From a virus, in the UHGV virus genome UHGV-0076394: a DNA stretch of 34,814 nt; one strand, 5' to 3'. The position numbers and the translations under genes are program-made. Below, in pieces: positions 691 to 34,764 of this stretch (position 1 is its first letter; every line of letters starts with the position of its first letter). The notes under the pieces were generated by a model that worked only from the letters and a program-made list of their open reading frames with translations, was not told where the DNA came from and ran no database searches.

Positions 691-1743
691 TTACGGGGTA
701 ATGCCAACCGCTGCCGCCACTTTGTCGCCACTTGGCAGCGTTGCCAGAGGATTGAAACGGAGCGCCGTTTCCAGATGATCCGGTGCCAGATGTGCGTAAC
801 GCATAGTCATTTTTATATCGTGGTGTCCGAGAATTTTTTGTAAGGCCAGAATGTTTCCACCCGACATCATGAAGTGCGCCGCAAACGTATGGCGCAGAAC
901 GTGTGTGAGTTGACCGCGAGGGAGCACGATAGACGTTTTTTCCATCACGGATAAAAATTGAAAATAGCAGTCTGTGAAGAAATTGAACCCATCAAGCGCC
1001 ATGATCTCTTCGTAAAGCTCTTTACTGATAGGGATGCTTCTGTTTTTCTTCCCCTTCGTTCTTACAAAGGTAATTCGGTATTTGGTCACCTGTGAACGAG
1101 TAAGATTTACGGCTTCTCGCCAGCGTGCGCCTGTGCTTAAGCATATCTTAACTACCAGTGCTAGAATTGGGTCCTGACGTTTGCAATCAGCCAGTAATTC
1201 AACAATCTGCTCATGGGTAAGCCATGCCATCTCTTTTTCTGCGATGGTGAATTTTCGCATGTTCTCCAGTGGGTTCGGATACGACCATTCGCCCAGACGG
1301 GATAGTTCGCTAAAAACACTACTTAGATAGCTTTGCTCCAGGTTAATGGTGACCGGGCTTGCTCCTTTCTTCCATTTCTCGCTGAAGTAGATCTCGCCTG
1401 TCAGGCGTTTATCTCGATAGTGGGCAAACATTTTAGAGGTGAGATCGGTTGCAAGAGGATTGCCCAGAGCGTCAACCATCAGCAGCAATTTGTCATAGAC
1501 ATGCTGCCCAGCAGTCAGAGATTTACCATGTAGTTTGAACCATAGCTCAACCACGTCTTTCAGGGTTCGACGATCCACTGATTCGCCCAGCCATGGCTTT
1601 GATTCGGTTTCTTCCATAGTGTGACGCTCAAAAGCCAGAGCTTCGCCTTTGGTGGCGAATTGTTTACGCACACGACGCCCACTTCGTCCGGCGGGGTAAC
1701 ATTCGCAAAGCCATTTCCCTGTGGTGAGTTTTCGTACTGCCAT
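691..1743 (-). CDS. int: Tyrosine site-specific integrase (P2/186 type)
   Basis: ORF 691..1899 minus; C-terminal catalytic region with ARWREA, HVLRHTFA and MRYAHL motifs; start set to the internal ATG at 1743 (MAVRKLTTGKW...) which has a GGAGGG Shine-Dalgarno 8 nt upstream. Confidence 0.9.
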   Translation of the reverse strand: MAVRKLTTGKWLCECYPAGRSGRRVRKQFATKGEALAFERHTMEETESKPWLGESVDRRTLKDVVELWFKLHGKSLTAGQHVYDKLLLMVDALGNPLATDLTSKMFAHYRDKRLTGEIYFSEKWKKGASPVTINLEQSYLSSVFSELSRLGEWSYPNPLENMRKFTIAEKEMAWLTHEQIVELLADCKRQDPILALVVKICLSTGARWREAVNLTRSQVTKYRITFVRTKGKKNRSIPISKELYEEIMALDGFNFFTDCYFQFLSVMEKTSIVLPRGQLTHVLRHTFAAHFMMSGGNILALQKILGHHDIKMTMRYAHLAPDHLETALRFNPLATLPSGDKVAAAVGITP

Positions 1744-4888: not shown

Positions 4889-5742
4889 GCACCATCCTGA
4901 AATGGGCGGGAAATAAAACTGCCATAATGTCCGAACTGAAAAAACATCTTCCTGCTGGCCCGCGACTGGTTGAACCTTTCGCGGGTTCCTGTGCTGTGAT
5001 GATGGAGACGGATTATCCCAGCTATCTGGTTGCGGATATTAATCCTGATTTAATCAACCTCTATAAAAAGGTTGCCGCTGATTGTGAATCGTTTATATCT
5101 CGCGCCAGAGTTTTATTTGAGATCGCAAACAGGGAGGTGGCTTATTACAACATAAGGCAGGAGTTTAATTACTCAACTGAAATTACTGATTTCATGAGAG
5201 CGGTATATTTCCTGTATCTCAATCGTCACGGTTACCGTGGTTTATGTCGCTATAACAAGAGCGGGCATTTCAACATTCCCTACGGTAATTATAAAAATCC
5301 GTATTTCCCTGAAAAAGAAATTCGCGCATTTGCAGAAAAGGCCCAGCGAGCAACGTTTATCTGCGCCAGCTTTGATGAAACGCTGGCGATGTTGAAGGCG
5401 GGGGATGTGGTGTATTGCGATCCGCCGTATGACGGTACGTTTTCCGGCTATCACACTGACGGCTTCACTGAAGATGACCAGTATCACCTGGCATCTGTTC
5501 TTGAACATCGGTCATCAGAAGGACATCCGGTCATTGTTTCTAACAGTGACACATCCCTGATCCGTTCGCTGTATCGCAATTTTACTCACCACTACATCAA
5601 GGCAAAACGCAGCATCGGTGTGGCAGCTGGCGAGGGTAAATCAGCAACAGAAATCATTGCTGTTTCCGGGCCGCGCTGCTGGGTGGGATTTGATTATTCG
5701 CGTGGCGTGGATAGTTCTGCCGTGTACGGAGTACGTGCATGA
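4885..5742 (+). CDS. dam: DNA adenine methyltransferase (Dam-like, N6-adenine, D12 class)
   Basis: Start at the internal ATG 4885 (GGAGG Shine-Dalgarno; ATGA overlap with the upstream stop); N-terminal LKWAGNK, AdoMet-binding EPFAGS and catalytic DPPY motifs. Confidence 0.85.
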
Positions 5743-8153
5743 GTCATGCCGATATGAACAACTGCTGCGGCTTTAACGAAGCTGCCGCATCGTTCTCATG
5801 GAACAGCCCGAAAAAGGCCATTAACCCTTATCTGGACCCGGTGGAAGTTGCGCCGGTTTCTACGCTTTCAAACCTGATCACTCTGTACGCTGCCGATAAC
5901 GAGCAGGAACAGCTGCGCCGTGAGGCGCTGAGTGATCAGGTTTGGGAGCGTTATTTCTTTAATGAATCCCGTGATCCTGTCCAGCGCGAAATGGAACAGG
6001 ATAAGCTCATTAGTCGGGCAAAGCTGGCGCATGAGCAGCAGCGTTTTAATCCGGATATGGTCATTCTGGCGGACGTCAACGCCCAGCCTTCCCATATCAG
6101 CAAGCCGCTGATGCAACGTATTGAATACTTCAGCAGCCTGGGCAGGCCAAAGGCTTATTCCCGCTATTTACGTGAGACGATTAAGCCATGTCTGGAACGA
6201 CTGGAGCATGTACGCGACAGTCAGCTATCTGCATCTTTTCGCTTTATGGCAAGCCATGAAGGGCTGGACGGCCTGCTGATCCTGCCTGAAATGAGTCAGG
6301 ATCAGGTGAAACGCCTGTCCACCCTGGTAGCTGCGCATATGAGTATGTGCCTTGATGCCGCTTGTGGCGATTTGTATGCCACCGATGACGTTAAGCCAGA
6401 AGAAATCCGCAATACATGGGAAAGGGTGGCAGCGGAAACCCTGCGTCTGGATGTCATCCCGCCTGCGTTTGAGCAACTCCGTCGGAAAAGAAACCGCCGT
6501 AAACCCGTGCCCTATGAACTCATTCCGGGTTCGCTGGCGCGTATGTTGTGCGCCGACTGGTGGTATCGGAAATTATGGAAGATGCGTTGCGAATGGCGGG
6601 AAGAGCAGTTGCGTGCAGTCTGCCTTGTCAGCAAAAAAGCATCTCCTTATGTCAGCTATGAAGCCGTGATGCATAAACGTGAGCAGCGCCGTAAGTCGCT
6701 GGAGTTTTTCCGTTCTCATGAACTGGTGAACGAAGACGGCGACACGCTGGACATGGAGGATGTGGTAAACGCCAGCAGCAGCAACCCAGCGCATCGCCGC
6801 AATGAGATGATGGCCTGTGTTAAAGGTCTGGAGCTTATCGCGGAAATGCGCGGTGACTGCGCCGTTTTCTACACCATCACCTGTCCGTCACGTTTCCATT
6901 CCACGCTAAATAACGGCAGGCCCAACCCAACCTGGACAAATGCGACGGTAAGACAAAGCAGTGATTATCTGGTCGGCATGTTTGCTGCATTTCGTAAGGC
7001 GATGCACAAAGCCGGATTGCGGTGGTATGGCGTGCGGGTGGCTGAGCCGCATCATGACGGTACAGTTCACTGGCACCTGTTGTGTTTTATGCGCAAAAAA
7101 GACCGCCGCACCATCACTGCATTACTGCGTAAGTTTGCCATCCGTGAAGACCGCGAGGAGCTGGGCAATAACACTGGGCCGCGCTTTAAGTCTGAGTTGA
7201 TTAACCCGCGCAAAGGTACGCCAACAAGCTACATCGCGAAATACATCAGTAAGAACATTGACGGGCGTGGTCTGGCTGGCGAGATCAGCAAGGAAACGGG
7301 GAAATCCCTGCGTGATAATGCTGAATACGTTAATGCCTGGGCGTCTCTGCATCGTGTTCAGCAATTCCGCTTCTTTGGCATTCCGGGGCGTCAGGCTTAC
7401 CGTGAACTGCGATTGCTGGCTGGTCAGGCGGCAAGGCAACAGGGGGACAAAAAAGCAGGTGCGCCGGTACTGGATAACCCGCGCCTTGATGCCATTCTGG
7501 CTGCTGCTGATGCTGGTTGTTTTGCCACCTACATCATGAAGCAGGGTGGCGTACTGGTTCCCCGCAAATATCACCTCATCAGAACTGCTTATGAAATCAA
7601 CGAAGAGCCGACCGCCTATGGCGATCACGGCATTCGTATTTATGGCATCTGGTCACCTATTGCAGAGGGCAAGATCTGCACTCATGCCGTGAAGTGGAAA
7701 ATGGTTCGTAAGGCCGTTGACGTTCAGGAGGCGGCAGCCGACCAGGGCGCTTGCGCCCCTTGGACTCGTGGCAATAACTGTCCCCTTGCTGAAAATTTGT
7801 ACCAACAAGGGAAAGACAAATCAGCTGATGGGGATACCAGAACGGATATCACCCGTATGGATGACAAGGAGTTGCACGATTACCTGCACAGTATGAACAA
7901 AAAAGAACGCCGGGAACTGGCTGCAAGGTTACGCCTGGTGAAACCGAAACGGCGTAGAGACTACAAACAGCGAATTACAGACCATCAACGACAGCAGCTC
8001 GTCTATGAACTGAAGTCCAGAGGATTTGATGGCAGCGAGAAAGAGGTCGATTTACTCCTTCGCGGCGGCAGCATTCCGTCAGGAGCAGGCCTGCGTATTT
8101 TCTATCGGAACCAGCGTTTGCAGGAAGATGATAAGTGGCGGAACCTGTATTAA
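5739..8153 (+). CDS. A: Replication initiation endonuclease (P2 gpA / 186 A family, rolling-circle initiator)
   Basis: 804 aa; ATGA overlap with dam; HxH metal-binding motif (VHWHLLCF) and Tyr-containing segment (YIAKYISK) typical of gpA-type nickases. Confidence 0.85.
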
Positions 8154-8247
8154 TTACGCGGATTAACAATTCGTGCTCTTAATAATACCAGGCATATCAG
8201 GCTGATGAACGTAAAAAAACGTTTTACATCAGTAAGATTATTATATA

Positions 8248-8263
8248 CTGTAAATATAAACAG
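8248..8263. promoter_or_regulatory. LexA box (SOS operator) CTGTAAATATAAACAG
   Basis: Exact CTGT-N8-ACAG with an AT-rich centre, about 45-60 nt upstream of the small ORF at 8307, overlapping -10-like hexamers. Confidence 0.7.
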
Positions 8264-8306
8264 TGGTTATGTATACAGTATTGCTTGTGGTGTCATAGGA
8301 GGAAAG

Positions 8307-8495
8307 ATGCAGGACTATTTTTTGGAGTCTTTGAAGCTCCAACGCATTGATTTTTTTCTTAAGCTTGTAGCGGCTAGTGAGTGTAGTGATGAAGAGAAGG
8401 GGCTGGCCCTGCAGTGGGTTTCTGAACTGACAGATGAACTCATGGCAAAAATCAGAAGCCACGAATACAACCGCTCAATGGATGTCATCAGCTGA
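8307..8495 (+). CDS. Small SOS-regulated protein (62 aa), possible Tum-like antirepressor module
   Basis: ATG at 8307 preceded by AGGAGGAAAG Shine-Dalgarno; directly downstream of the LexA box; in the slot that holds tum in 186. Confidence 0.45.
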   Translation: MQDYFLESLKLQRIDFFLKLVAASECSDEEKGLALQWVSELTDELMAKIRSHEYNRSMDVIS

Positions 8496-8505
8496 GGGGA
8501 CTTTT

Positions 8506-8739
8506 ATGCGCATTGAAATAATGATCGATAAAGAGCAGAAGATTAGCCAGTCTACCCTAGACGCCCTTGAATCAGAGCTTTACCGCAATCTGCGCCCCCT
8601 GTATCCCAAAACGGTAATTCGTATCCGTAAAGGTAGCTCTAACGGTGTGGAACTGACCGGACTGCAACTGGACGAAGAAAGGAAACAAGTGATGAAAATT
8701 ATGCAGAAGGTGTGGGAAGACGACAGCTGGCTGCATTAA
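8506..8739 (+). CDS. dinI: DinI-family protein (77 aa)
   Basis: ATG at 8506 with GAGGGGA Shine-Dalgarno; MRIEIMIDKEQ...LESELYRNL...WEDDSWL matches the DinI family pattern (MRIE...acidic C-terminus with W); co-transcribed with the LexA-controlled ORF. Confidence 0.7.
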   Translation: MRIEIMIDKEQKISQSTLDALESELYRNLRPLYPKTVIRIRKGSSNGVELTGLQLDEERKQVMKIMQKVWEDDSWLH

Positions 8740-9123
8740 GAAACGTTGCTGGCGTCTGAACTTGCTTCTGGCGTCAGCAAGGTTGAACAACGAGCTATGC
8801 GAGGCGTTAGCCATCTGATCAAAAGACATCAAATATCATATTGTATATCGTGGTCAAACGCTGGAAACAATCATTCCCGATCAGAGGGGCTTCTTTCAAT
8901 GTCCAAAAGAGTGAGATAGAGGATACAGGATGGGAAGAGCTTTTGATTAATTATCGTCCAAGTTTTTCAAAAGCTTCTTATCTGGCGGTCGATACATGAT
9001 TTACTGTTGGATATGGTATTTAAAATTAATCTTTACACTGTGGTATATGCAGAATAGGATATTATCAATACAATCAAACTGTTTTCATACGGTTATTAAT
9101 ATTGCAATGTTATAGGTAATGTC

Positions 9124-10242
9124 ATGTATCTTTTCAAGTATTACCGTCCGGACTTCTTCTTCGAGAAAGCTATTCGTTATAATGAATTATATTTTTCCGC
9201 TCCTGCGCAATTGAATGATCCCAATGATCTCAATATAGATTATCGCTTCGATAATAAATTGAAATTATGGGATATTTTATTGCGTTCTCCTTGCGATAAA
9301 TCCTATAAAAATTTGAGTCACATATTGGATTTGAGTAATTTGAAAATACATAAGGGATTGAATCGTATTTTTAGAGGAAAAAAAATAAAAAGTAGCATTG
9401 AGTCATTAGATAGCCTGTTTGACTCACACGTTGATGAGATACGTAAGATCATAGATGATGGTTTACTACCTATCAATGTGATTAATTCTGCTATTTATGG
9501 AAATATTCCTGAACCACGCCAATATTTGGTTTCACTTTGCGAGAACAGTATCAAAGAAAGGTTGTATAGGAAAATAGTTCCTGCAGTATTCAGTGTGTCA
9601 TTTTCAGCTAATGCGTTAGATCGTATGATGTGGGCGCATTATGCTGCTGGCTTTAGTGGTTGTGTTGTGATTTATGAAACGCAGGATTTTAATATTGATG
9701 GTATACCCTATACTGGAATGAAGCTAAGAGAAAATTTATTTTCATCAGATAAATTTAATTTTCCAGTTAAGCCAATAAAATATAGTAATCAGGCTAAAGA
9801 GGTTTCACTTCTAGACCCAAGCGCAAATGTTGCAGAGTTATTTTTAACTAAAAATAGATTTTGGAGATATGAAGCTGAATATCGAATGTTTATTCCGGAG
9901 GCAAATGCAGGAATAGGGAGTGAGCGGCATGTTCAAAGACGCGTAAATCGAAATATTGGACATATTTTTCATCATGATGCTAATGTTGTTAAAGGGATCA
10001 TTTTTGGTCCTAGAATGTGTGAAATGAAAAAAGAAAGCATATGGAATTGTATCAAGTCAAATATGGAGAATTCAAATTCAACAATATGTTATTTTTTTGA
10101 CTCTGAGTTATCAGCATCAGGAAAGATTACTATTTCAAAAGGGCAACGAGCGGAAAAAATGAAAAATTTCACTTTGTTCAGGAACAAGTTAAGTCAGACG
10201 GAAATGGCTAAAGTTTTGAAGGAAATTGGCATTACGAACTAA
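9124..10242 (+). CDS. DUF2971-like protein (372 aa), AT-rich accessory gene
   Basis: N-terminus MYLFKYYR...NELYFSAPAQLNDPNDL and internal MWAHYA / FWRYEAEYR motifs as recalled for DUF2971; strongly AT-rich compared with flanking phage genes. Confidence 0.6.
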   Translation: MYLFKYYRPDFFFEKAIRYNELYFSAPAQLNDPNDLNIDYRFDNKLKLWDILLRSPCDKSYKNLSHILDLSNLKIHKGLNRIFRGKKIKSSIESLDSLFDSHVDEIRKIIDDGLLPINVINSAIYGNIPEPRQYLVSLCENSIKERLYRKIVPAVFSVSFSANALDRMMWAHYAAGFSGCVVIYETQDFNIDGIPYTGMKLRENLFSSDKFNFPVKPIKYSNQAKEVSLLDPSANVAELFLTKNRFWRYEAEYRMFIPEANAGIGSERHVQRRVNRNIGHIFHHDANVVKGIIFGPRMCEMKKESIWNCIKSNMENSNSTICYFFDSELSASGKITISKGQRAEKMKNFTLFRNKLSQTEMAKVLKEIGITN

Positions 10243-10308
10243 CCTAACAACAGTGCATGCCTATGCTGCCTGAATTTGCATGACCGTTTGAGGATCGTTT
10301 TTGCTAAG

Positions 10309-10332
10309 GCCCGCCAGAACTGGCGGGCTTTT
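10309..10332 (+). terminator. Rho-independent terminator GCCCGCCAG-aa-CTGGCGGGC-TTTT
   Basis: Perfect 9-bp GC-rich stem, 2-nt loop, followed by TTTT; 67 nt downstream of the DUF2971-like gene stop. Confidence 0.7.
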
Positions 10333-10377
10333 GCGTGGATCAGGCACCTGCATGAAAACCACTACACAAAGCGGGTA

Positions 10378-10396
10378 GGCGTGGCGGGGATACGAG
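10378..10396. other. Candidate cos (cohesive end) core GGCGTGGCGGGGATACGAG
   Basis: First 13 nt equal the start of the 19-nt cohesive end recalled for phage 186 (GGCGTGGCGGGGA...); lies in a GC-rich backbone-like segment between the two AT-rich cargo genes; not verified. Confidence 0.3.
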
Positions 10397-10472
10397 CGCG
10401 CGGAAGCAGTTTCACATATAATTCGATTGGTGTAATCTGAGCTACAACTTAAGAAAAGAGGATGAGTTAATC

Positions 10473-12212
10473 ATGGAATTGCACGCATATACTAGAACCA
10501 TATCAGAATTACTTTCTGTTAATAGAAAATATGTTGTTCCAAGATTTCAACGCGAATATTCTTGGGTAAAAGAACAAATTAATGAGCTTTGGTACGATGT
10601 AATATCTAATATAAAATTAGAGAGTGATTTCACATATTCTAATAATGAGTATTTTATTGGTTCTTTAGTTTTGGTTGGAGATGAAACAGGAAGGGAGATG
10701 CAAATAGTTGATGGTCAGCAACGACTTACAACTCTTACAATTTTTCTTTCCGTTTTATGCGAGGCGTTCAAATCAAACAATCAATCAGATTTAGCGTCTG
10801 CCCTATTTGAAAATTATATTGAAGGTCGTGATGATGATGGTAAGAAATTCTTTAAATTAATAAATGAAACGCCTAAACCTTTTTTTCAGAAAAATATCCA
10901 GCATATTAATAAGGCAGATGACATCCCACAGACACAAGAAGAGCGAAATCTCTTGTCAGCATATAAAGAAATTACATCGTTAGCCTCAAAGGAAAAGTTG
11001 GAAAAATATTTTTCAGTAGAAATTAATACTGAGGATAATTATTCCAGTGTATTAAAGGCAATTAGGGATCAGATTTTAAGATTCCTAAAGATAATTTTCA
11101 TTACTGTTAATGAAGAGGACGAGGCGTATACAATATTTGAAACATTAAATGCTAGAGGGATGAATTTAAGTTTTGTAGATTTAATCAAAAATAAATTATT
11201 TAAAGCGTTAAATGACCCACATCCAAATGATGATGCAAAAGATAATTGGAAGGCTATACGTACTACTTTAATGCAAAGAAATGGTGTAGGGACTTTTGAG
11301 AATTACATGAGGCACTGGTGGGTGTCGAAGTATGCTTATGTGAGCAATGAAAATCTTTATAAATCCTTTATTGGCAAATGGCGTAAGGGGGAAATTAATC
11401 CGGCAACCTTTATTGACGAATTGAAACAGGATGCCGAATTGTATGTACGCTTGTCATCTCCTTTGGAGAGTGATTATCCACAAATGGAAGACAAACAGTT
11501 ATTTCATTCGTTGAATGCAATTAGGCTATTTGGTATAACACAGTGTAGACCTTTTTTATTAGCCTTACTAAAGGCGAAGCAGCAAAAGAGATTACGTCAA
11601 TGTGATCTTTTAAAAGCAGTTAAATATATTGAAAATTTTCATTTTGTATTTAATGCGGTATGTTCATTAAGACCGTCAGGGATAGAAGGAGCATATTCTA
11701 AGGCCGCAAGATCTATAAATTCACCAAATGCTACAAAAGCAACTAATGGAACAACAATTGACCAGTTATGTATGTTGTTGAGTAATCGCAAGCCGGAAAT
11801 TTCTGTATTTACTGAACATTTTAGGGATATATTGTTTACTGATGACAACTCCAAACAAAAAAGATTAGTTCAATATATTATAAATAAATTTGAAATGGCC
11901 CGTCATAATGGAGATGAGTATCGTCCTAATTCTATCTCTTTAGAACATGTAATGCCTCAAAGTGCTGGCGACGATAAGGAAATAGGAATGGTTGGAAATA
12001 TAATCCCCCTGTCAAAAGAACTTAATGAGCAAGCTGGTGATAAATCATTGGCACAAAAGCTTTCTATCTATTCTCAATCGGAGTTTAGATTGACAGAAGA
12101 GTTTGTTAGTGAACTTGAAACCATTTACCATAATGAATGGAATCTCCAGTCTATTATTCAGAAGACGGATAGGATGGCTGGTGAGGCTTATATGATTATT
12201 TGGAGTCATTAA
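10473..12212 (+). CDS. DUF262/DUF1524 two-domain nuclease (GmrSD-like type IV restriction family)
   Basis: N-terminal DUF262 signatures VPRFQREYSW and DGQQRLTTL; C-terminal DUF1524-like His-Me segment SLEHVMPQS...GNIIPLSKELN; AT-rich. Confidence 0.75.
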   Translation: MELHAYTRTISELLSVNRKYVVPRFQREYSWVKEQINELWYDVISNIKLESDFTYSNNEYFIGSLVLVGDETGREMQIVDGQQRLTTLTIFLSVLCEAFKSNNQSDLASALFENYIEGRDDDGKKFFKLINETPKPFFQKNIQHINKADDIPQTQEERNLLSAYKEITSLASKEKLEKYFSVEINTEDNYSSVLKAIRDQILRFLKIIFITVNEEDEAYTIFETLNARGMNLSFVDLIKNKLFKALNDPHPNDDAKDNWKAIRTTLMQRNGVGTFENYMRHWWVSKYAYVSNENLYKSFIGKWRKGEINPATFIDELKQDAELYVRLSSPLESDYPQMEDKQLFHSLNAIRLFGITQCRPFLLALLKAKQQKRLRQCDLLKAVKYIENFHFVFNAVCSLRPSGIEGAYSKAARSINSPNATKATNGTTIDQLCMLLSNRKPEISVFTEHFRDILFTDDNSKQKRLVQYIINKFEMARHNGDEYRPNSISLEHVMPQSAGDDKEIGMVGNIIPLSKELNEQAGDKSLAQKLSIYSQSEFRLTEEFVSELETIYHNEWNLQSIIQKTDRMAGEAYMIIWSH

Positions 12213-12221
12213 TAGTTGAAA

Positions 12222-12248
12222 GCCCTATTATTATATCAATGATAGGGC
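12222..12248. terminator. Hairpin GCCCTAT-N13-ATAGGGC between convergent genes (possible bidirectional terminator)
   Basis: 7-bp inverted repeat in the 45-bp gap between the nuclease stop and the portal stop, flanked by A/T runs. Confidence 0.35.
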
Positions 12249-12257
12249 AATTTAATT

Positions 12258-13289
12258 CTACTCTAACACGTAATTACTAAATGAAATTATCGGTTTCTTA
12301 ATCCATTTGTTTAATTCGTGTATGCGTTTTTGTAAGGGAATTAACTCGTTTCTTACAAAAACCTTACTAGCCTTCTCCACATCCCCAAACCCCCCGACAT
12401 TACTAGGCATTATCCCCATCATTTGTGGCGGCACGCGGTGCGCAGCCATCATGTCATCACGGCTCACGTTTTTGATATTCAGAAACTCATCCTTCGCTGC
12501 GACTTCTGACAACGGGATGATCTGAAGCCCGTCCTTTTTGCCGTTAGGCGAGTACATAAACAGGTTGCGGAAGTTACCTGGGCCTTTGGCGCTTTTCATC
12601 GCATTACGGAGGTTGTTCACATCCTCCTGGTTCTGCGCGGCATCGGTCATGTACATGATGAAGCCAGCATGACTACCGTTAATGTAATACTTCCGGCGGA
12701 ACAGCGTGGCGGACTCGTTGAGCAAAGCGGATGGGATGGCAGAAAGATAGCCGGGCAGGCCGTAGATCTCCTGATTAATATCCGGTTCCATCAGATGAAA
12801 AATGCTGCCTTTTGTGAACTGATACGGCTGGGTTGTCATACCGTATTGCACAAACCAGTAGGTATCCAGGTCTAACCCGCGTCGGGTGTATTTCGCCAGG
12901 GCAGGTTCAAGGGCGATCACTTCACCGAAGCGGTTCGTGCGTTTCTCCAGGTAGGCGTTACCAAATACCAGATAGTCCTGCACAAAACGTGAAAACGCCT
13001 GCTGGCTGAGCAGCGGATGAGGGATGTAGGTGCTGGTCAGTATGTTGCACTTTACGGCAATCGGTGAGCTGTGGTGCACGGCGGCGCGAAAGGTTCGCGC
13101 CAGCCCGTCGAAACTCACTGGTGGCTCATACCAGCGGTCCATCTGTACGCATTCCACATAATCCAGCAGTTCTCGGCGGTCCAGAACAGGAACGGGATCG
13201 CCGAAGCTGAATGCTTCGGCTGAAGTCTGGTTTTTATGCTGGATCTGTTTCGTCGCCGCAGCGCGGTTTTTCTTACTCTTTCCCATCAA
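12258..13289 (-). CDS. Q: Portal protein (P2 gpQ family)
   Basis: 343 aa, leftward, immediately downstream of the large terminase with overlapping stop/start; conserved order and size for P2 Q. Confidence 0.85.
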   Translation of the reverse strand: MMGKSKKNRAAATKQIQHKNQTSAEAFSFGDPVPVLDRRELLDYVECVQMDRWYEPPVSFDGLARTFRAAVHHSSPIAVKCNILTSTYIPHPLLSQQAFSRFVQDYLVFGNAYLEKRTNRFGEVIALEPALAKYTRRGLDLDTYWFVQYGMTTQPYQFTKGSIFHLMEPDINQEIYGLPGYLSAIPSALLNESATLFRRKYYINGSHAGFIMYMTDAAQNQEDVNNLRNAMKSAKGPGNFRNLFMYSPNGKKDGLQIIPLSEVAAKDEFLNIKNVSRDDMMAAHRVPPQMMGIMPSNVGGFGDVEKASKVFVRNELIPLQKRIHELNKWIKKPIISFSNYVLE

Positions 13290-15052
13290 AAAATCTCCAC
13301 AATATTGCTGGTATTGGCGGACTCGCCCTGCAGCGGTTCGTTAAACAGTGCGTGCATTGTTGCCCAGGCCAGATCGGCATGGCTGGCTTCTTCGCTGCGG
13401 CTGGCTTCATAGGTCGGGCGGTTGCCGCTGGCGGTGGTGGCGCGGCGGATTGCCATAAATGACTGCGCTATGTCGGTGTGTCCGGCGTCAAACTCCAGAC
13501 GGCGGTGGCTGATAATGTCATAGGCCTTGAGTACCAGGGCGTTTTTAACATTGGGGTTGTAGACAAACTCCCGGACGGCAGGAAAGAACGCTTTCACGTT
13601 CTCATAAACTCCGTGACCGACACCTGTCGAGTCGATGCCGATATAAGTCACGTTGTACTGTTCGGTCAGTTTTTTGATGGCGTCAGCCTGGGCGCGAAAG
13701 TCCATCCCGCGCCACTGGTGACGCTCAAGAATGCGAAACTTGCCGCCCGGCACGGCTGGCGGTGCCACCACCACGCATCCGGCGCTGTCGCCGTTCTGCG
13801 TACCTTTGGCCGGGTCATAACCGATCCACACTTCGCGCCAGCCAAACGGGCGCAGTGCCAGTGCATGAAAGTCGGTCCAGACTTCCCAGCTGTCCACCAT
13901 GCACGCCTGCAGCTCGCTGAGCGGGAACACGGACGCGAGATCGTCCACGAACTCGCACATCAGCAGGTTTTGGTATTCGTCCGGGCTGTACTCCATGCGT
14001 AGCTGGTCGAGGTCGAACAGGTTACAGCCGCCGCGCACCGCATCTTCCACGGTGACTATCTGGCGGTATTGCCCGTCAGCGCACAGCAGGCCGGGGGCCA
14101 GATTGTTGTGGGACAGGTCGATGTCCACCTTATCGGCTTTGTTGCGTCCACGGTTGAACAGCGCACCGGACCAGAACGGATAAGCACTGTGGGTCAGGCT
14201 GGATGGCGTGGAAAAATAGGTTTGTCGCCATTTTTTGTGAATAGCCATACCGGAAGCCACTTTGCGCAGCTCCTGGAATTTCGGTATCCAGAAATATTCA
14301 TCCAGATACAGGTTGCCGTGGTAACTCTGGGCCGTGCGGGCATTGGTGCCGAGGAAGTAAAGCGTGGCCCCGTTAGGAAGCACCATCGGATCGCCTTTCA
14401 GCTCCACCTCCACTTCTTTGGCGAAGTCGATGATGTACTGCTTAAAGACGTGGGCCTGTGCCTTACTGGCGGAAAGGAAAATCTGGTTACGCCCGGTAAG
14501 CAGGGCGTCAATCAGGGCTTCACGGGCAAAGTAAAAGGTCGCGCCGATCTGGCGTGACTTCAGCAGGTTGCGGATGCGGTTGGTTTTTCCGGCTTCCCAC
14601 CAGTGGCGCTGGTAGTTGAACATGGAGGAATGGAAGATTTCTTCCAGCTTCTCAATCTGCTCATCGGTGAAAACATTCTTTTCCGGCTGACGGCGTGGGC
14701 CTTTGTTGCGGTTGGCGACGTTAGGGTTTAAGTCGGCTTCGTTGCCGCCATTGTTAAACTTGCCGATCCGCGCGTGGCGCTCCGACTGGCGCGCCAGCAG
14801 GTCAATCTCTTTGAAATCTTTCCCTTCTTTGTGCTCCTTCATGATGAGCTGGCAGTAGCGTGCGGTGGTGGTGAGCTGCATCTGATCCAGCGGCCCATAG
14901 TCACCCCACTTGTCGCGTTTTTTCCAGCTGTGAACGGTTGCAACTTTCTCGCCCAGCATTTCAGCTATGCGGGCTACGCGGTATCCCTGAAAGTACAGCA
15001 GCATGGCCTGCCGACGGGGATCGAGATCTGCGGGTGTCAGTGTGGTGTTCAT
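13286..15052 (-). CDS. P: Terminase large (ATPase) subunit (P2 gpP family)
   Basis: 588 aa; Walker A-like SRQIGATFY; divergent from the O N M L operon as in P2. Confidence 0.85.
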   Translation of the reverse strand: MNTTLTPADLDPRRQAMLLYFQGYRVARIAEMLGEKVATVHSWKKRDKWGDYGPLDQMQLTTTARYCQLIMKEHKEGKDFKEIDLLARQSERHARIGKFNNGGNEADLNPNVANRNKGPRRQPEKNVFTDEQIEKLEEIFHSSMFNYQRHWWEAGKTNRIRNLLKSRQIGATFYFAREALIDALLTGRNQIFLSASKAQAHVFKQYIIDFAKEVEVELKGDPMVLPNGATLYFLGTNARTAQSYHGNLYLDEYFWIPKFQELRKVASGMAIHKKWRQTYFSTPSSLTHSAYPFWSGALFNRGRNKADKVDIDLSHNNLAPGLLCADGQYRQIVTVEDAVRGGCNLFDLDQLRMEYSPDEYQNLLMCEFVDDLASVFPLSELQACMVDSWEVWTDFHALALRPFGWREVWIGYDPAKGTQNGDSAGCVVVAPPAVPGGKFRILERHQWRGMDFRAQADAIKKLTEQYNVTYIGIDSTGVGHGVYENVKAFFPAVREFVYNPNVKNALVLKAYDIISHRRLEFDAGHTDIAQSFMAIRRATTASGNRPTYEASRSEEASHADLAWATMHALFNEPLQGESANTSNIVEIF

Positions 15053-17106: not shown

Positions 17107-17757
17107 ATGAGCCTGAGTCCCGCACGGCAGCATCGCCTGCGCGTTCAGGCTGAACAGGCCGCCCGCGAGGGCGGCAGTGTTCGCCACGCGTCGGGCTATG
17201 ACCTGATGCTGCTGCAACTGGCGGAAGACCGCCGCCGTCTCAAGGGCGTTCAGTCCACGGTCAAAAAAGCGGAAATCAAGGTGGAGCTGCTGCCGAAATA
17301 CGTCGCCTGGGCAGAGGGTGTCCTGGCTGCCGGAGGCGCTCAACAGGATGACGTGCTGATGTACGTGATGCTGTGGCGCATTGATGCCGGAGATTATGCC
17401 GGGGCGCTGGAGATCGGGCGTCATGCCCTGCGTCATGGCTGGGTGATGCCGCTGGGTAATCGCAATGTGCAGACCGTGCTGGCAGAGGAAATGGCAGACG
17501 CGGCGCAGAGCGCAATGCTTGCCGCCACCGGCTTTGATGCCGATCTGTTGCTGCAGACGCTGGAGCTGACAGACGGTCTGGATATGCCGGACCAGTCACG
17601 GGCGCGTCTGCATAAAGCGATTGGCGCTGTCCTGAGTGAAAGCAACCCGGCTTCCGCCCTTAATCATCTCAACCATGCGTTACAGCTCGATCCCCGCTGT
17701 GGCGTGAAAAAAGACAAACAGCAGCTGGAGCGCAGACTGCGCAATGACAGCCGCTGA
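17107..17757 (+). CDS. M: Terminase small subunit (P2 gpM family)
   Basis: 216 aa; position after N; ...AQDDVLMYVMLWRIDAGDYAGALEIGRHAL... resembles gpM. Confidence 0.8.
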   Translation: MSLSPARQHRLRVQAEQAAREGGSVRHASGYDLMLLQLAEDRRRLKGVQSTVKKAEIKVELLPKYVAWAEGVLAAGGAQQDDVLMYVMLWRIDAGDYAGALEIGRHALRHGWVMPLGNRNVQTVLAEEMADAAQSAMLAATGFDADLLLQTLELTDGLDMPDQSRARLHKAIGAVLSESNPASALNHLNHALQLDPRCGVKKDKQQLERRLRNDSR

Positions 17758-20563: not shown

Positions 20564-21002
20564 ACTGCAGAAGGTGGACGACTGGCTGAGTGCCTTGCTG
20601 GCGAATCTGGAGCCAGCCGCAAGAAGCCGCATGATGCGCCAGCTGGCGCAGGAACTGCGCCGGACACAGCAGCAGAACATCAGGATGCAGCGCAATCCAG
20701 ATGGCAGCAGTTATGAGCCGCGACGGGTAACAGCACGCAGCAAAAAGGGGCGCATCAAACGTCAGATGTTTACAAAGCTGCGCACCACAAAATACCTGAA
20801 AACTGCCGCCAGCGCCGATTCTGCCAGCGTGCAGTTTGAAGGTAAGGTGCAGCGCATTGCCCGCGTTCATCACTACGGCCTGCGTGATCGCATCAGTCGA
20901 AGAGGACCGGAGGTCCGTTACGCAGAGCGTCGTCTCCTAGGCGTAAATGATGATGTGGAAACTGTCATTCAGGATGCTTTGCTAAATTGGTTACAGAGAT
21001 AA
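20556..21002 (+). CDS. S: Tail completion / virion morphogenesis protein (P2 gpS family)
   Basis: 148 aa; GTG start overlapping the R stop; conserved position. Confidence 0.75.
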   Translation: MAELQKVDDWLSALLANLEPAARSRMMRQLAQELRRTQQQNIRMQRNPDGSSYEPRRVTARSKKGRIKRQMFTKLRTTKYLKTAASADSASVQFEGKVQRIARVHHYGLRDRISRRGPEVRYAERRLLGVNDDVETVIQDALLNWLQR

Positions 21003-21028
21003 ATAAAACCACATTTATAAAATTTAGT

Positions 21029-21895
21029 TTACTTTTTACTGATAAATGGATTCCTATCAATCCATGAGTCCCAGTTTATATAATTGTCATCAAATCCTAT
21101 GAATTTCATTAGTACAAGTGGCACCAGTAAATTCAAATTTGATGAGTAATCTTGAATTTCAATTTTGCCATCTGAGTTTTTTTCATCAAGATAGGCAATG
21201 TATTTACCATTGTGGAACAGCGAGTGACGGAGTTTGCAGTAATGCATAATGTTTCTTTGAGCTAATGTATGTCCTGTTTTTTCGACATTAAAACCATATT
21301 CTTTTAAAACCTGAGTGATTATTTGTGGTGTTTTGGCAGGGGAGTAGTCATTTTTAATAAATCTGCAAAGTGCTTCTAGTGCCGAGAATAATAAATAATA
21401 TCTGACGTCGATATAATTTATTGAGTCGCGGAAAGCTAGCATTGATTTAAAAAATGATGTTCTAAAGGCATCTTGTTTTAGCATGGCTTTACTATTTAGT
21501 TTTTCCATGGCTAAGCAAATAAAATTTTCTCGGCTGTTTGGTGCAAAATAATCTTCCATGATGATAATGCCCGCACCCTTATCTCTTTTTTTGTCAAGCT
21601 TTTTGGGTAGAGATGGTTTGAAATTGAAAGGGGTTTCATCATTTTCAAGTTCTCCTGAAATGATTACATTTTTTTGTTCAATAAAACTAAGAACTGCTTG
21701 TAAATCAAAAATAAGCTGCTGTTGAGTGGCGTAGTTATTCGAGTTTGGTTTGAAAAAACCAGTGAGGATGTACCTATCATTAGCCCAGCCATTTTTTTTT
21801 AACTCACTCCATGAACTGAAAATAGGAGTTAACTCACCACCGTCAAATGTGATTTTTTTAGTGAAATTAAATCCATAAATTGCGATTTGTGTCAT
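21029..21895 (-). CDS. AT-rich accessory protein (289 aa) with R-x4-H motif; candidate HEPN/Abi-like defence protein
   Basis: Minus-strand gene inserted between S and V; ATG at 21895 preferred over 21943; contains CKLRHSLFHNG (R-x4-H); markedly AT-rich. Confidence 0.55.
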   Translation of the reverse strand: MTQIAIYGFNFTKKITFDGGELTPIFSSWSELKKNGWANDRYILTGFFKPNSNNYATQQQLIFDLQAVLSFIEQKNVIISGELENDETPFNFKPSLPKKLDKKRDKGAGIIIMEDYFAPNSRENFICLAMEKLNSKAMLKQDAFRTSFFKSMLAFRDSINYIDVRYYLLFSALEALCRFIKNDYSPAKTPQIITQVLKEYGFNVEKTGHTLAQRNIMHYCKLRHSLFHNGKYIAYLDEKNSDGKIEIQDYSSNLNLLVPLVLMKFIGFDDNYINWDSWIDRNPFISKK

Positions 21896-21924
21896 CTTAA
21901 ATACCTTAGAAATTGTTTCTCTTT

Positions 21925-21942
21925 TGTATGGTTCTCCATACA
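21925..21942. promoter_or_regulatory. TGT-N12-ACA dyad (TGTATGG-ttct-CCATACA), candidate late promoter pV activator site
   Basis: Perfect 7-bp inverted repeat conforming to TGT-N12-ACA about 50-65 nt upstream of the V start codon, in the short region shared with the divergent cargo gene. Confidence 0.45.
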
Positions 21943-21990
21943 TACGCTCTGTATTACATCACTCTACCCGGTTGTGCAAGGATCGCTCTC

Positions 21991-22569
21991 ATGAACGCAC
22001 AATTAACCGAAATCATGCGCCTTATCACCAACCTGATCCGCACTGGGGTAGTCACCGAAGTGGACCGGGAAAACTGGCTTTGCCGGGTGAAAACGGGCGA
22101 CCTTGAAACCAACTGGATCAGCTGGCTGACGCTGCGTGCCGGGAATGCCCGCACATGGTGGCGACCATCGGAAGGTGAGCAGGTAGTGCTGCTGAGTCTG
22201 GGCGGCAATCTGGAGACTGCCTTTGCGCTGCCCGCTGTCTATTCGAATCAGTTCGCACCACCGTCGAAGTCGGCGGACGCCTGCGTGACAGAACATCCTG
22301 ACGGTGGCTGGTTTGAATACGAACCCGCCACCGGGCGCTGGTATGTCAGGGGCATCAAATCAATGGTCATTGAGGCCGCTGACAACATCACCATGAAAAC
22401 CAGTGAGTTTGTACTGGAGGCTGACCGCACGCGTATTAACAGCGAAGTAGTGATCAATGGTGGCGTTACCCAGGGCGGCGGTGCGATGAGTTCTAACGGA
22501 ATTGTGGTTGATGCACATCAGCATACTGGCGTCCTGAAAGGCGGCGACACAACCGGAGGCCCGGTATGA
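21991..22569 (+). CDS. V: Baseplate spike / assembly protein (P2 gpV family)
   Basis: Start at ATG 21991 (MNAQLTEIMRLITNLIRTG...); ...WLTLRAGNARTWWRPSEGEQV...SNG..H.H match recalled gpV features. Confidence 0.85.
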   Translation: MNAQLTEIMRLITNLIRTGVVTEVDRENWLCRVKTGDLETNWISWLTLRAGNARTWWRPSEGEQVVLLSLGGNLETAFALPAVYSNQFAPPSKSADACVTEHPDGGWFEYEPATGRWYVRGIKSMVIEAADNITMKTSEFVLEADRTRINSEVVINGGVTQGGGAMSSNGIVVDAHQHTGVLKGGDTTGGPV

Positions 22570-27162: not shown

Positions 27163-27217
27163 TGCAGAGATTACGGCTAACTGGCATCATCCCAGATTTT
27201 TATTCAGGGGATTGATC

Positions 27218-27775
27218 ATGCTTATTGGCTATGTACGCGTGTCAACAAATGACCAGAACACCGATTTGCAACGTAATGCACTGAACTGCGCGGGATGTGA
27301 GCGAATTTTTGAGGATAAAATCAGTGGCACTAAGTCCGACAGACCGGGGCTAAAAAAACTGCTCAGGACACTATCGGCAGGAGACACGCTGGTCGTCTGG
27401 AAGCTGGACAGGTTGGGGCGCAGTATGCGGCATCTTGTTACGCTGATAGAAGAGTTGCGCCAGCGTGGCGTGAATTTCCGAAGCCTGACTGACAGTATTG
27501 ATACCAGTACCCCAATGGGCCGTTTCTTTTTTCATGTCATGGGTGCCCTGGCTGAAATGGAACGCGAACTGATAGTTGAACGCACTATGGCAGGGCTGGC
27601 TGCAGCTCGTGCCAAAGGCAGAGTAGGTGGACGCCGTCCTAAGTTGACCACCGAACAGTGGGCACAGATTGGACGTTTACTCGAGGCCGGAGAATCAAGA
27701 CAGCGTATTGCACTGATTTTTGACGTGGGCGTTTCTACCATTTATAGAAAATTTCCGGCGAATAAGAGCAATTAA
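27218..27775 (+). CDS. Serine DNA invertase (Gin/Hin/Cin/Pin family)
   Basis: N-terminus MLIGYVRVSTNDQNTDLQRNAL with the catalytic Ser in the YVRVS motif; C-terminal HTH; about 186 aa. Confidence 0.9.
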   Translation: MLIGYVRVSTNDQNTDLQRNALNCAGCERIFEDKISGTKSDRPGLKKLLRTLSAGDTLVVWKLDRLGRSMRHLVTLIEELRQRGVNFRSLTDSIDTSTPMGRFFFHVMGALAEMERELIVERTMAGLAAARAKGRVGGRRPKLTTEQWAQIGRLLEAGESRQRIALIFDVGVSTIYRKFPANKSN

Positions 27776-33185: not shown

Positions 33186-33667
33186 TGATGGTGCTGGGAT
33201 TGTACGTGTTTATGCTGCGCACCGTTCCGTATCAGGAACTGCAGTATCAACGCAGCTGGCGACATGCGGCAAACAGTCGGGTAAACCGACGTCCGTCCAC
33301 GCAGTTTCTGGGACCGGAAAACGACATGCTGACGCTTTCCGGTGTTCTTATGCCGGAGATAACAGGCGGCAGGCTGTCGTTGCTGGCACTGGAGCAGATG
33401 GCAGAACAGGGGAAAGCATGGCCCCTGATTGAAGGCAGCGGCACGATTTACGGCATGTATGTGATTGAGGGACTGAATCAGACTAAAACGGAGTTTTTCC
33501 GCGACGGTATGCCGCGCCGGATTGAGTTCACCCTGTCGCTCAAACGAGTGGATGAATCCCTGTCCGATATGTTCGGTGATCTCAGTGCGCAACTGAATAA
33601 TCTGCAGGACACGGCAACGTCTGCCTTAAGCGATATCAGTAAAACGGTGGGAGGGCTGCTGTCGTGA
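33182..33667 (+). CDS. U: Tail protein U (P2 gpU family)
   Basis: 161 aa; MMMVLGLYVFMLRTVPYQELQYQRSWRH...NSRVNRRP... very close to recalled gpU; ATGA overlap with T. Confidence 0.9.
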   Translation: MMMVLGLYVFMLRTVPYQELQYQRSWRHAANSRVNRRPSTQFLGPENDMLTLSGVLMPEITGGRLSLLALEQMAEQGKAWPLIEGSGTIYGMYVIEGLNQTKTEFFRDGMPRRIEFTLSLKRVDESLSDMFGDLSAQLNNLQDTATSALSDISKTVGGLLS

Positions 33668-34764
33668 ATTTCAGCTCTGAACTGCTTAACAAAGGCAACA
33701 AAACTCCCGCATTCAGCATCAGTATTGAGGGCAGGGATATCACCACTGTGCTGGATAACCGCCTGATGAGTTTGACGCTGACGGATAACCGGGGCTTTGA
33801 AGCGGACCAGCTTGATCTGGAGCTGGACGACGCTGACGGAAAAATCGTGCTGCCGCGCCGTGGTGCGGTCATTACGCTGGCGCTGGGCTGGAAGGGGCAG
33901 CCGCTTTTCCCTAAAGGGGCATTCACAGTGGACGAGATTGAACACACTGGCGCACCGGACCGCCTGACTATCCGGGCGCGAAGTGCTGATTTTCGGGAAA
34001 CGCTGAATACCCGCCGTGAAAAATCGTGGCATAAGACCACCGTCGGGGAAGTGGTGAAGGAAATAGCCGCGCGGCACAAGCTGAAGATGGCACTGGGTAA
34101 AGACCTGTCAGATAAACCCGTGGAGCATATAGACCAGACTAATGAGAGTGACGGCAGTTTTCTGATGCGGCTGGCGCGACAGTACGGTGCCATCGCGTCG
34201 GTGAAAAATGGCAATCTGTTATTCATCCGGCAGGGGCAGGGCAAAAGCGCCACTGGTAAACCTCTGCCAGTGATCACTATCACACGCAAGGACGGCGACA
34301 GTCACCGATTTACCCTGGCAGATCGCGGAGCCTACACGGGCGTAATTGCCAGCTGGTTGCATACCCGCGAACCTGCGAAGAAAGAAAGCACCACGGTGAA
34401 GCGTAAGCGCAGAACTAAGAAGCAGAAGAAAGAGCCAGAAGCGAAGCAGGGCGATTACCTGGTGGGTACGGATGAAAACGTGCTGGTACTTAATCGCACT
34501 TATGCCAACCGGAGCAACGCCGAACGAGCGGCGAAAATGCAGTGGGAACGCCTGCAACGCGGCGTTGCGTCATTTTCGCTACAACTGGCAGAAGGGCGGG
34601 CAGATCTCTACACGGAAATGCCAGTGAAAGTCAGTGGCTTTAAACAGCCGATAGATGATGCGGAATGGACCATTACGACTCTGACGCATACCGTCAGTCC
34701 GGATAACGGTTTTACGACCAGTCTGGAGCTTGAAGTGAGGATTGATGATTTCGAAATGGAATGA
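33664..34764 (+). CDS. D: Tail protein D (P2 gpD family, late tail/baseplate hub-related)
   Basis: 366 aa; probable GTG start overlapping the U stop; conserved last tail gene. Confidence 0.85.
   Translation: MNFSSELLNKGNKTPAFSISIEGRDITTVLDNRLMSLTLTDNRGFEADQLDLELDDADGKIVLPRRGAVITLALGWKGQPLFPKGAFTVDEIEHTGAPDRLTIRARSADFRETLNTRREKSWHKTTVGEVVKEIAARHKLKMALGKDLSDKPVEHIDQTNESDGSFLMRLARQYGAIASVKNGNLLFIRQGQGKSATGKPLPVITITRKDGDSHRFTLADRGAYTGVIASWLHTREPAKKESTTVKRKRRTKKQKKEPEAKQGDYLVGTDENVLVLNRTYANRSNAERAAKMQWERLQRGVASFSLQLAEGRADLYTEMPVKVSGFKQPIDDAEWTITTLTHTVSPDNGFTTSLELEVRIDDFEME

Follow-up and report, generated by a model that had tools for sequence, protein, structure and literature searches.

The stretch of DNA analysed here (UHGV-0076394, 34,814 nt; hereafter the window) is a Fels-2/186-like prophage of the P2 family in Escherichia coli, with a length of approximately 34.7 kb that is within the range of viable relatives (SEN8, 35.2 kb). 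The left part carries, in order, an integrase, a CI-type repressor, a Dam methylase and replication gene A, followed by an SOS operon and two AT-rich accessory genes, while the portal and large terminase genes are the first backbone genes beyond the predicted cos site and are followed by scaffold, capsid, small terminase and tail genes (Table 1). A matching SOS layout is annotated in phage 186 (p95, LexA site, tum, orf97 and t95b), and the first accessory gene of the window is located downstream of this LexA-boxed DinI/Tum operon. Pfam matches indicate that the one element encodes both a gpP-type large and a gpM-type small terminase. In E. coli strain 61, which has a near-identical prophage located between rcdA and ybjL, RefSeq labels the small subunit 'terminase endonuclease subunit'; the strain 61 chromosome differs from window positions 8100-12400 at two bases, 8236 and 10376.

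Table 1. Features of the window around the predicted cos site, with other prophage features referred to in the text
Feature	Position	Strand	Evidence or content
Replication gene A	5739-8153		Last gene of the left part
SOS operon	8248-8739	+	LexA box, small ORF and DinI/Tum-like gene; heads towards slot 1 and the terminator of the cos block
LexA box	8248-8263	+	Perfect CTGTAAATATAAACAG; upstream of the small ORF and DinI/Tum-like gene
DinI/Tum-like gene	8506-8739	+	Pfam DinI, 1.3e-22
Slot 1 insert (right end of packaged genome, predicted)	8813-10252	+	33.5% GC; contains the DUF2971/PDC-S31 gene
DUF2971/PDC-S31 gene	9124-10242		Pfam DUF2971, E = 5e-4, just under the family cut-off; PADLOC PDC-S31, E = 1e-23
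Conserved module, predicted cos	10253-10403	+	~125 bp right-end arm, 19-nt cohesive end and CGCGCG flank
TGCATG repeats	10254-10282	+	Perfect at 10254-10259 and 10277-10282; degenerate middle copy TGCCTG at 10267-10272
Hairpin, predicted intrinsic terminator	10309-10332	+	GCCCGCCA-GAAC-TGGCGGGC at 10309-10328, then TTTT at 10329-10332
55-bp core cos homologue	10349-10403	+	TGCAT.AAAACC ... AAGCGGG.., then 19-mer, then.GCGCGC
Predicted 19-nt 5' cohesive end	10378-10396	+	GGCGTGGCGGGGATACGAG; by homology; nicks predicted before 10378 (top) and after 10396 (bottom)
Slot 2 cassette (left end of packaged genome, predicted)	10404-12365	+	33% GC; GmrSD-type gene, AT-rich hairpin and portal tail
GmrSD-type gene	10473-12212		Pfam GmrSD_N, 4e-38, and GmrSD_C, 5e-14; PADLOC HEC-06, 1e-90
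AT-rich hairpin in slot 2	12222-12248		-16.5 kcal/mol, z = -4.0
AT-rich last ~35 portal codons, in slot 2 cassette	12258 to about 12365	-	Composition and co-variation with cargo type
Portal gene	12258-13289	-	Pfam Phage_portal, 5.7e-17
Large terminase gene (gpP-like)	13286-15052	-	Terminase_6N, 3e-65; Terminase_6C, 1.7e-49; Terminase_5, 1.5e-26
Small terminase gene (gpM-like)	17107-17757	+	Pfam Phage_term_smal, 3e-40
304-aa ORF	21029-21943	-	No Pfam or PADLOC match
Resolvase/invertase-family recombinase gene	27212-27775	+	Directly after the tail-fibre and tail-fibre-assembly genes
Gene D ORF	33664-34764		Open, 366 aa, near-full Pfam coverage

Two features of the tail region were also observed. 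An accessory slot at about 21000-22000 of the window holds an unannotated 304-aa gene, which an IS1 element adjoins in strain 61. Further along, small opposite-strand ORFs lie between the recombinase gene and the tail-fibre genes, an arrangement that suggests a Gin/Cin-type invertible tail-fibre segment.

The two accessory genes are separated by a 230-bp intergenic stretch with a GC content of approximately 50%. In 200-nt windows, GC content was 0.49-0.51 over positions 10200-10499 and 0.29-0.39 on both sides. A 151-bp block within this stretch had a GC content of 57.6%, compared with 33.5% and 33.2% for the inserts on either side and 54.6% for the portal and terminase genes. Relatives of this block were gathered by an exact search of viral contigs for the 19-mer that forms the predicted cohesive end, giving at least 120 loci. 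Column conservation across 115 unique sequences anchored on the 19-mer, among the matches listed, was 0.8-1.0 from -125 to +25 relative to the predicted nick and 0.3-0.45 outside these limits, which thus define the 151-bp module. The right-hand limit (+25/+26) coincides with the end of P2-P4 identity and of the core shared by these phages. Wherever flanking genes were detectable at the at least 120 loci, the 19-mer was preceded by gpA and/or DinI in the same orientation and followed by a portal gene on the other strand. The 19-mer of the window likewise sits between gene A with its accessory region and the portal gene and reads towards the opposite-strand portal, as is also seen in the 186, P2 and phiCTX records. 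Among complete E. coli genomes, the block was matched by megablast in 487 of 5426, with 485 matches of at least 80% coverage and 26 of at least 99% identity. No Rfam match was obtained for positions 8100-12400 at E<=1, indicating that the block is not explained by a known RNA family. Coding by the small ORFs that overlap it (33, 54 and 25 aa) was unsupported, the conservation pattern being that of a DNA site. The original prediction had described this stretch as a GC-rich backbone remnant; the composition bears out the first part of that description, but the block appears to be a complete, conserved cos module instead of a remnant.

The sequence GGCGTGGCGGGGA, which the original prediction had equated with the start of the 19-nt cohesive end of phage 186, occurs as a sole exact copy in the window (10378-10390); all other window matches to it carry two mismatches and their number is as expected by chance. 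Comparison with the annotated 186 cohesive end, GGCGTGGCGGGGAAAGCAT, bore this out, as the match is exact over bases 1-13 and amounts to 15 of 19 over the full end. The two ends differ in their last bases, AAAGCAT in 186 and ATACGAG in the window. Identity of the 19-mer was 14/19 with P2 and P4 and 19/19 with the Salmonella phage SEN8 (Felsduovirus; KT630647/NC_047753), and the sequence fits the GC-rich end pattern of the P2 family, GGCG(A/T)GGCGGGGA....... In SEN8, GGCGTGGCGGGGATACGAG constitutes bases 1-19, annotated as 'putative cos site', and the end of the SEN8 record aligns with the window up to position 10377. Escherichia phage Cartapus (Elveevirus) has an identical 19-mer at positions 33-51, which fall within a cos annotated as putative. 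For SEN8, the genome announcement reports GGCGTGGCGGGGATACGAG as the cos site, identified during annotation (PMC5427200), and a literature search for experimental end-mapping of the ATACGAG variant yielded annotation-based statements only. We infer cos function in the window prophage, since the SEN8 site is annotation-based and the SEN8 and Cartapus records both label cos as 'putative'. The cut geometry is similarly a prediction for the window, borrowed from the annotation of the 186 record.

Homology extends well beyond the cohesive end. A '55-bp core' cos of P2 and P4 is credited to Ziermann & Calendar (1990) in passages of PMC5694545, PMC3931495 and PMC9594776. This core was re-derived here from a P2/P4 alignment, in which 52 of 55 positions were identical over the stretch from TGCAT.AAAACC to GCGCGC. 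Gapless identity of the window to the corresponding 55 bp was 41/55 for 186, 39/55 for P2, 42/55 for P4, 52/55 for SEN8 and 51/55 for Cartapus. Alignment with P2-family cos sites had been set beforehand as a test by which the prediction could be refuted, and the outcome was positive homology with 186, P2 and P4. The window was aligned with the junction regions of circularised P2, P4, 186, SEN8 and Cartapus, and all six have a common architecture. It starts with TGCATG repeated three times in tandem (at about -126, -111 and -101), followed by an inverted repeat at -70 to -50, found in 186, P4 and the clade of the window and lacking in P2. The sequence TGCAT(G/T)AAAACC...AAGCGGG.. then abuts the cut, and is followed by the 19-nt end and by (C/T)GCGCGC.

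The TGCATG motif is under-represented approximately four-fold in the whole window (11 observed, 41.8 +/- 6.7 expected), and 3 of the 11 copies cluster in the 151-bp block, all on the + strand. This combination of avoidance and clustering fits a protein-binding role, and the repeats are candidate binding sites for the small terminase. The gpM-like small terminase is the presumed reader of the module as a whole.

Known systems resemble the window to differing extents. The closest are SEN8 and Cartapus, in which the 19-mer and CGCGCG flank are identical to those of the window, the upstream repeats and hairpin are as in the window, and cargo occupies both the cos-portal and the DinI-cos intervals. 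Their cargo genes differ from those of the window, in which -2 is T rather than C and two TGCA repeats are degenerate; past +26, SEN8 and the window are no longer homologous. SEN8 was plaque-purified and its particles were banded in CsCl (PMC5427200). Phage 186 (NC_001317; cohesive end annotated at 1-19) shares with the window the TGCATG repeats, the CGCCAGA.CTGGCG inverted repeat, the TGCAT.AAAACC core, the trailing GCGCGC and a LexA-controlled tum/DinI operon that runs towards cos. In contrast to the window, 186 has no gene between cos and portal gene W, only a 177-bp gap. For P2 and P4, the order of elements in the core and its right-hand limit are as in the window; P2 has cargo (old and tin) on the right-end side only.

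Lambda cos consists of cosN and cosB, and a two-subunit terminase introduces staggered nicks beside a binding region built from repeats. The resemblance of the window to lambda is a functional analogy between unrelated sequences; lambda has a 12-nt overhang, as against 19 nt predicted for the window, and in the family of the window, by comparison with lambda, the conserved recognition arm is on the right-end side of the cut. P4-like satellites with the cos variant of the window were absent from the 120 sampled loci. One 13.5-kb contig (L045, IMGVR_UViG_2700989567_000009) has an identical 19-mer at 1475-1493 (- strand), with the CGCGCG flank and hairpin and without the TGCATG repeats. This contig encodes a P4-type integrase, RecE/RecT, YdaT, a ParB-HTH protein and IstB-like and DndB-like proteins, with no P2 structural or gpA genes, and it may be a satellite-like element that borrows the packaging signal of the window's clade.

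The inserts on either side of the block were then compared across relatives. The gpA-gpQ interval contains compositionally foreign inserts (33% GC) within a backbone of 55% GC, and its contents vary across E. coli genomes and viral contigs. Both cargo genes of the window match models of defence candidates at the domain or profile level (GmrSD_N/C, HEC-06 and PDC-S31). The left edge of slot 2 is marked by the end of homology to relatives at +25/+26. A consensus scan detected no sigma-70 promoter for the GmrSD-type gene in 10404-10472, where a TATAAT at 10417-10422 was found without an acceptable -35. Empty and filled states were clearly separated in length among the matches listed. Where slot 1 was empty, the cos block followed 77-79 bp after the DinI stop, with ...GCGAGGCGTTAGC joined straight to the block; where it was filled, 341-3083 bp lay in between. 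For slot 2, the cos core and the portal gene were 146-181 bp apart at empty and 517-3524 bp apart at filled loci, the value for 186 being 177 bp. Slot 2 was filled at 79 of 88 of the listed loci, slot 1 at 59 of 82, and both at 41 of 56.

Clustering of the cargo among the matches listed gave 41 slot-1 types and 62 slot-2 types, with one slot-1 type paired with six slot-2 types and one slot-2 type paired with three slot-1 states. The contents of the two slots assort independently. The same mixing was seen in chromosomes: many E. coli genomes have window positions 8100-10402 in common, after which DUF4062, AAA ATPase or hypothetical genes replace the GmrSD-type gene, while in strain DSM 103246 the GmrSD gene of the window is preceded by another slot-1 cargo, a HEPN protein plus IS2. 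A repeat search of 8700-12300 identified no target-site duplications or flanking repeats of the inserts beyond one 13-nt exact repeat, and insertion of the cargo by a transposition-type process was thus unsupported. Replacement by recombination between conserved flanks is a likely alternative, given the lack of direct repeats. The 13-nt exact direct repeat, TATGCGAGGCGTT, is located at 8796-8808, at the left junction of slot 1, and at 10756-10768, inside the GmrSD coding sequence; it may be due to chance.

Cargo on both sides of cos, as proposed in the original prediction, is therefore upheld by the at least 120 related loci, by the E. coli genomes that diverge after position 10402 and by isolated phages with genes between cos and portal. 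Two genes occupy this position in SEN8 and a DUF4145 gene in Cartapus. A further example is phiCTX (NC_003278), in which the annotated cosL (1-21) is followed by ctx with its own promoter and terminators and then by Q, an architecture equivalent to slot 2; ctx is on the + strand directly past the cohesive end, and the terminators are followed by the portal gene on the - strand. The differences from the window are a Pseudomonas host, a 21-nt end, a toxin rather than a defence-type cargo and another cos sequence. A cosL-Q 'hotspot' of P2-like phages is noted in a passage of PMC5694545, which cites Dodd & Egan (1996) and Nakayama (1999), and sections of Rousset et al. (2022; PMC9122126) and Moura de Sousa et al. 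(2026; PMC13586616) describe a cos-adjacent defence hotspot between gpA and gpQ. As described in those sections, the P2 gpA-gpQ hotspot matches the window in interval, high turnover and defence-type cargo. However, those sections treat gpA-gpQ as one hotspot 'adjacent to cos', whereas two slots split by a 150-bp cos module are observed here. The identical 19-mer is already published as a cos site, and cargo near cos, on the portal side too, has been in the literature since the 1990s. The layouts of SEN8, Cartapus and phiCTX, together with the published gpA-gpQ and cosL-Q hotspots, indicate that the earlier reading was right and that it is established.

The slot-2 cassette extends into the portal gene. 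Towards the 3' end of the portal gene (12258-12392, - strand), a conserved GFGDVEKA motif is followed by ~35 final codons with an AT-rich composition (0.27-0.37 GC), and the amino acids that they encode differ by cargo type. For 85 loci among the matches listed, members of the same cargo cluster had near-identical portal tails, the GC content of the tail was 0.52 at loci with an empty slot and 0.35 at occupied loci, and tail GC correlated with cargo GC (Spearman rho=0.50, P=4e-6). This co-variation indicates that the right junction of slot 2 is within the portal coding sequence, with each cos-to-portal cassette supplying an AT-rich portal C-terminus of its own.

Taken as predictions from comparative sequence data, these observations make it very probable that cos of this Fels-2/186-like (P2-family) E. 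coli prophage corresponds to 10253-10403, with two independently exchanging cargo slots alongside. The main competing explanation, which we consider improbable, is that the block is homologous to cos but inactive: a decaying site in a domesticated defence island, which persists as a terminator and as flanking homology. The window block departs from the clade consensus at -108 (within a TGCATG repeat), -94, -35 and -2, positions that are 94-98% conserved among the matches listed, and such a loss of activity would be consistent with these four substitutions, which include a private C>T at -2 and change two TGCA-type repeats. In a base-by-base comparison, the T of the window at position 10376 (-2 from the predicted nick) corresponds to C in strain 61 and in three further E. 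coli prophages related to it, and C is also found at -2 in P2, P4, 186, SEN8 and Cartapus. Furthermore, strain 61 has a sister copy with an IS1 element and a gene D annotated as frameshifted (L135, 22779-23476 and 35980-37079), which indicates that some members of the lineage are decaying. However, the closest 26 E. coli genomes are all 99.3% identical to the block, equivalent to one mismatch, so that apart from 10376 the variant block is found in all 26. It occurs beside several different slot-2 cargos, a sign that cassette exchange continues in this lineage. Two other, divergent natural lineages also have T at -2, and the 19-mer and CGCGCG flank are intact. The copy in the window lacks IS1 (a 776-bp coordinate offset) and has an open gene D, and its total length fits that of viable relatives.

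A second explanation, that the block is mainly a terminator or insulator between cargo cassettes and that the true packaging site is elsewhere in the prophage, centres on the hairpin inside the arm. As RNA, the hairpin has a predicted stability of -25 kcal/mol (z=-3.7; none of 200 shuffles as stable) with a stem of 8-11 bp. Stem pairs are retained in 84-99% of 109 unique blocks and TTTT is directly 3' of the stem in 90 of these 109, among the matches listed. This strong, conserved hairpin with a T-run speaks for the second explanation, which is nevertheless very unlikely. There is no second motif copy in the window, where the remaining matches are at chance level; the block can be aligned position by position to the cos ends annotated for 186, P2 and P4, and its place and orientation relative to portal and terminase are canonical; and P2 lacks the hairpin while keeping the remaining cos features, which indicates that the hairpin is an accessory part. 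The least credible alternative, that the resemblance to the 186 end is a chance match, has nothing in its favour beyond the shortness of a GC-rich 13-mer, for which approximately 0.001 exact occurrences are expected in 2 x 34.8 kb, and is ruled out by the 151-bp homology, the alignment with P2, P4 and 186 and the same gene context at at least 120 loci.

Within the predicted cos site, the hairpin is likely to be an intrinsic terminator that closes the rightward DinI/slot-1 unit and is embedded in the cos module. A consensus terminator scan did not call it, and its U-run is four long; the scan probably missed the hairpin because the stem can extend into the T residues. In 186, a homologous CGCCAGAGCTGGCG is found at the same place without a T-run, and a separate terminator, t95b, is located upstream. 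Since the hairpin is conserved in the clade and downstream of a LexA-controlled operon, for which 186 uses t95b, it is best read as a terminator of the DinI operon built into the cos arm, and it may also have a role in packaging. The element had been termed a near-ideal intrinsic terminator: the strong hairpin and TTTT agree with this, although 'near-ideal' is slightly generous for a four-U run on which the scan was silent. The predicted terminator is a conserved piece of the cos-proximal block and not a separate feature.

By homology with P2 and 186, the gpM and gpP terminase subunits would, after induction, recognise the ~125-bp arm upstream of the cut, which holds the TGCATG repeats and the TGCATGAAAACC...AAAGCGGG core. 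Staggered nicking at the predicted positions would then generate 19-nt 5' overhangs, and virion DNA would have the GmrSD-type gene and then the portal gene at its start, and the DinI operon, the DUF2971 gene and the cos arm at its end. Most likely, the hairpin and TTTT in the arm would stop the rightward SOS/cargo transcript before cos. With only -125 to +25 having to be retained, and with two operons converging at their ends on this point, the DNA on each side would be free for replacement, giving rise to two independently exchanging cargo slots, occupied here by two defence-type genes. A more general proposal, to which we give even chances, is that the gpA-gpQ 'hotspot' consists of two independent cassette sites pivoting on the 150-bp cos module, that the limits of the module (-125 and +25/+26) amount to a natural deletion map of the minimal in vivo packaging signal, and that cos-to-portal cassettes, carrying their own AT-rich last ~35 portal codons, are exchanged by events with one anchor in the cos core and the other within the portal coding sequence.

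This analysis fixes the predicted ends of the virion DNA of the prophage and would place one defence-type gene at either extremity of the packaged chromosome, in slots whose contents are routinely replaced across the P2/186 phage family. The increments over the published picture are a comparative delimitation of what cos requires (-125 to +25), the resolution of the hotspot into two independently assorting slots and the finding that the portal tail travels with the cargo. These three points can be of use for the definition of cassette boundaries in defence-island mining and for the design of cosmid or transduction vectors for the clade to which the window belongs.
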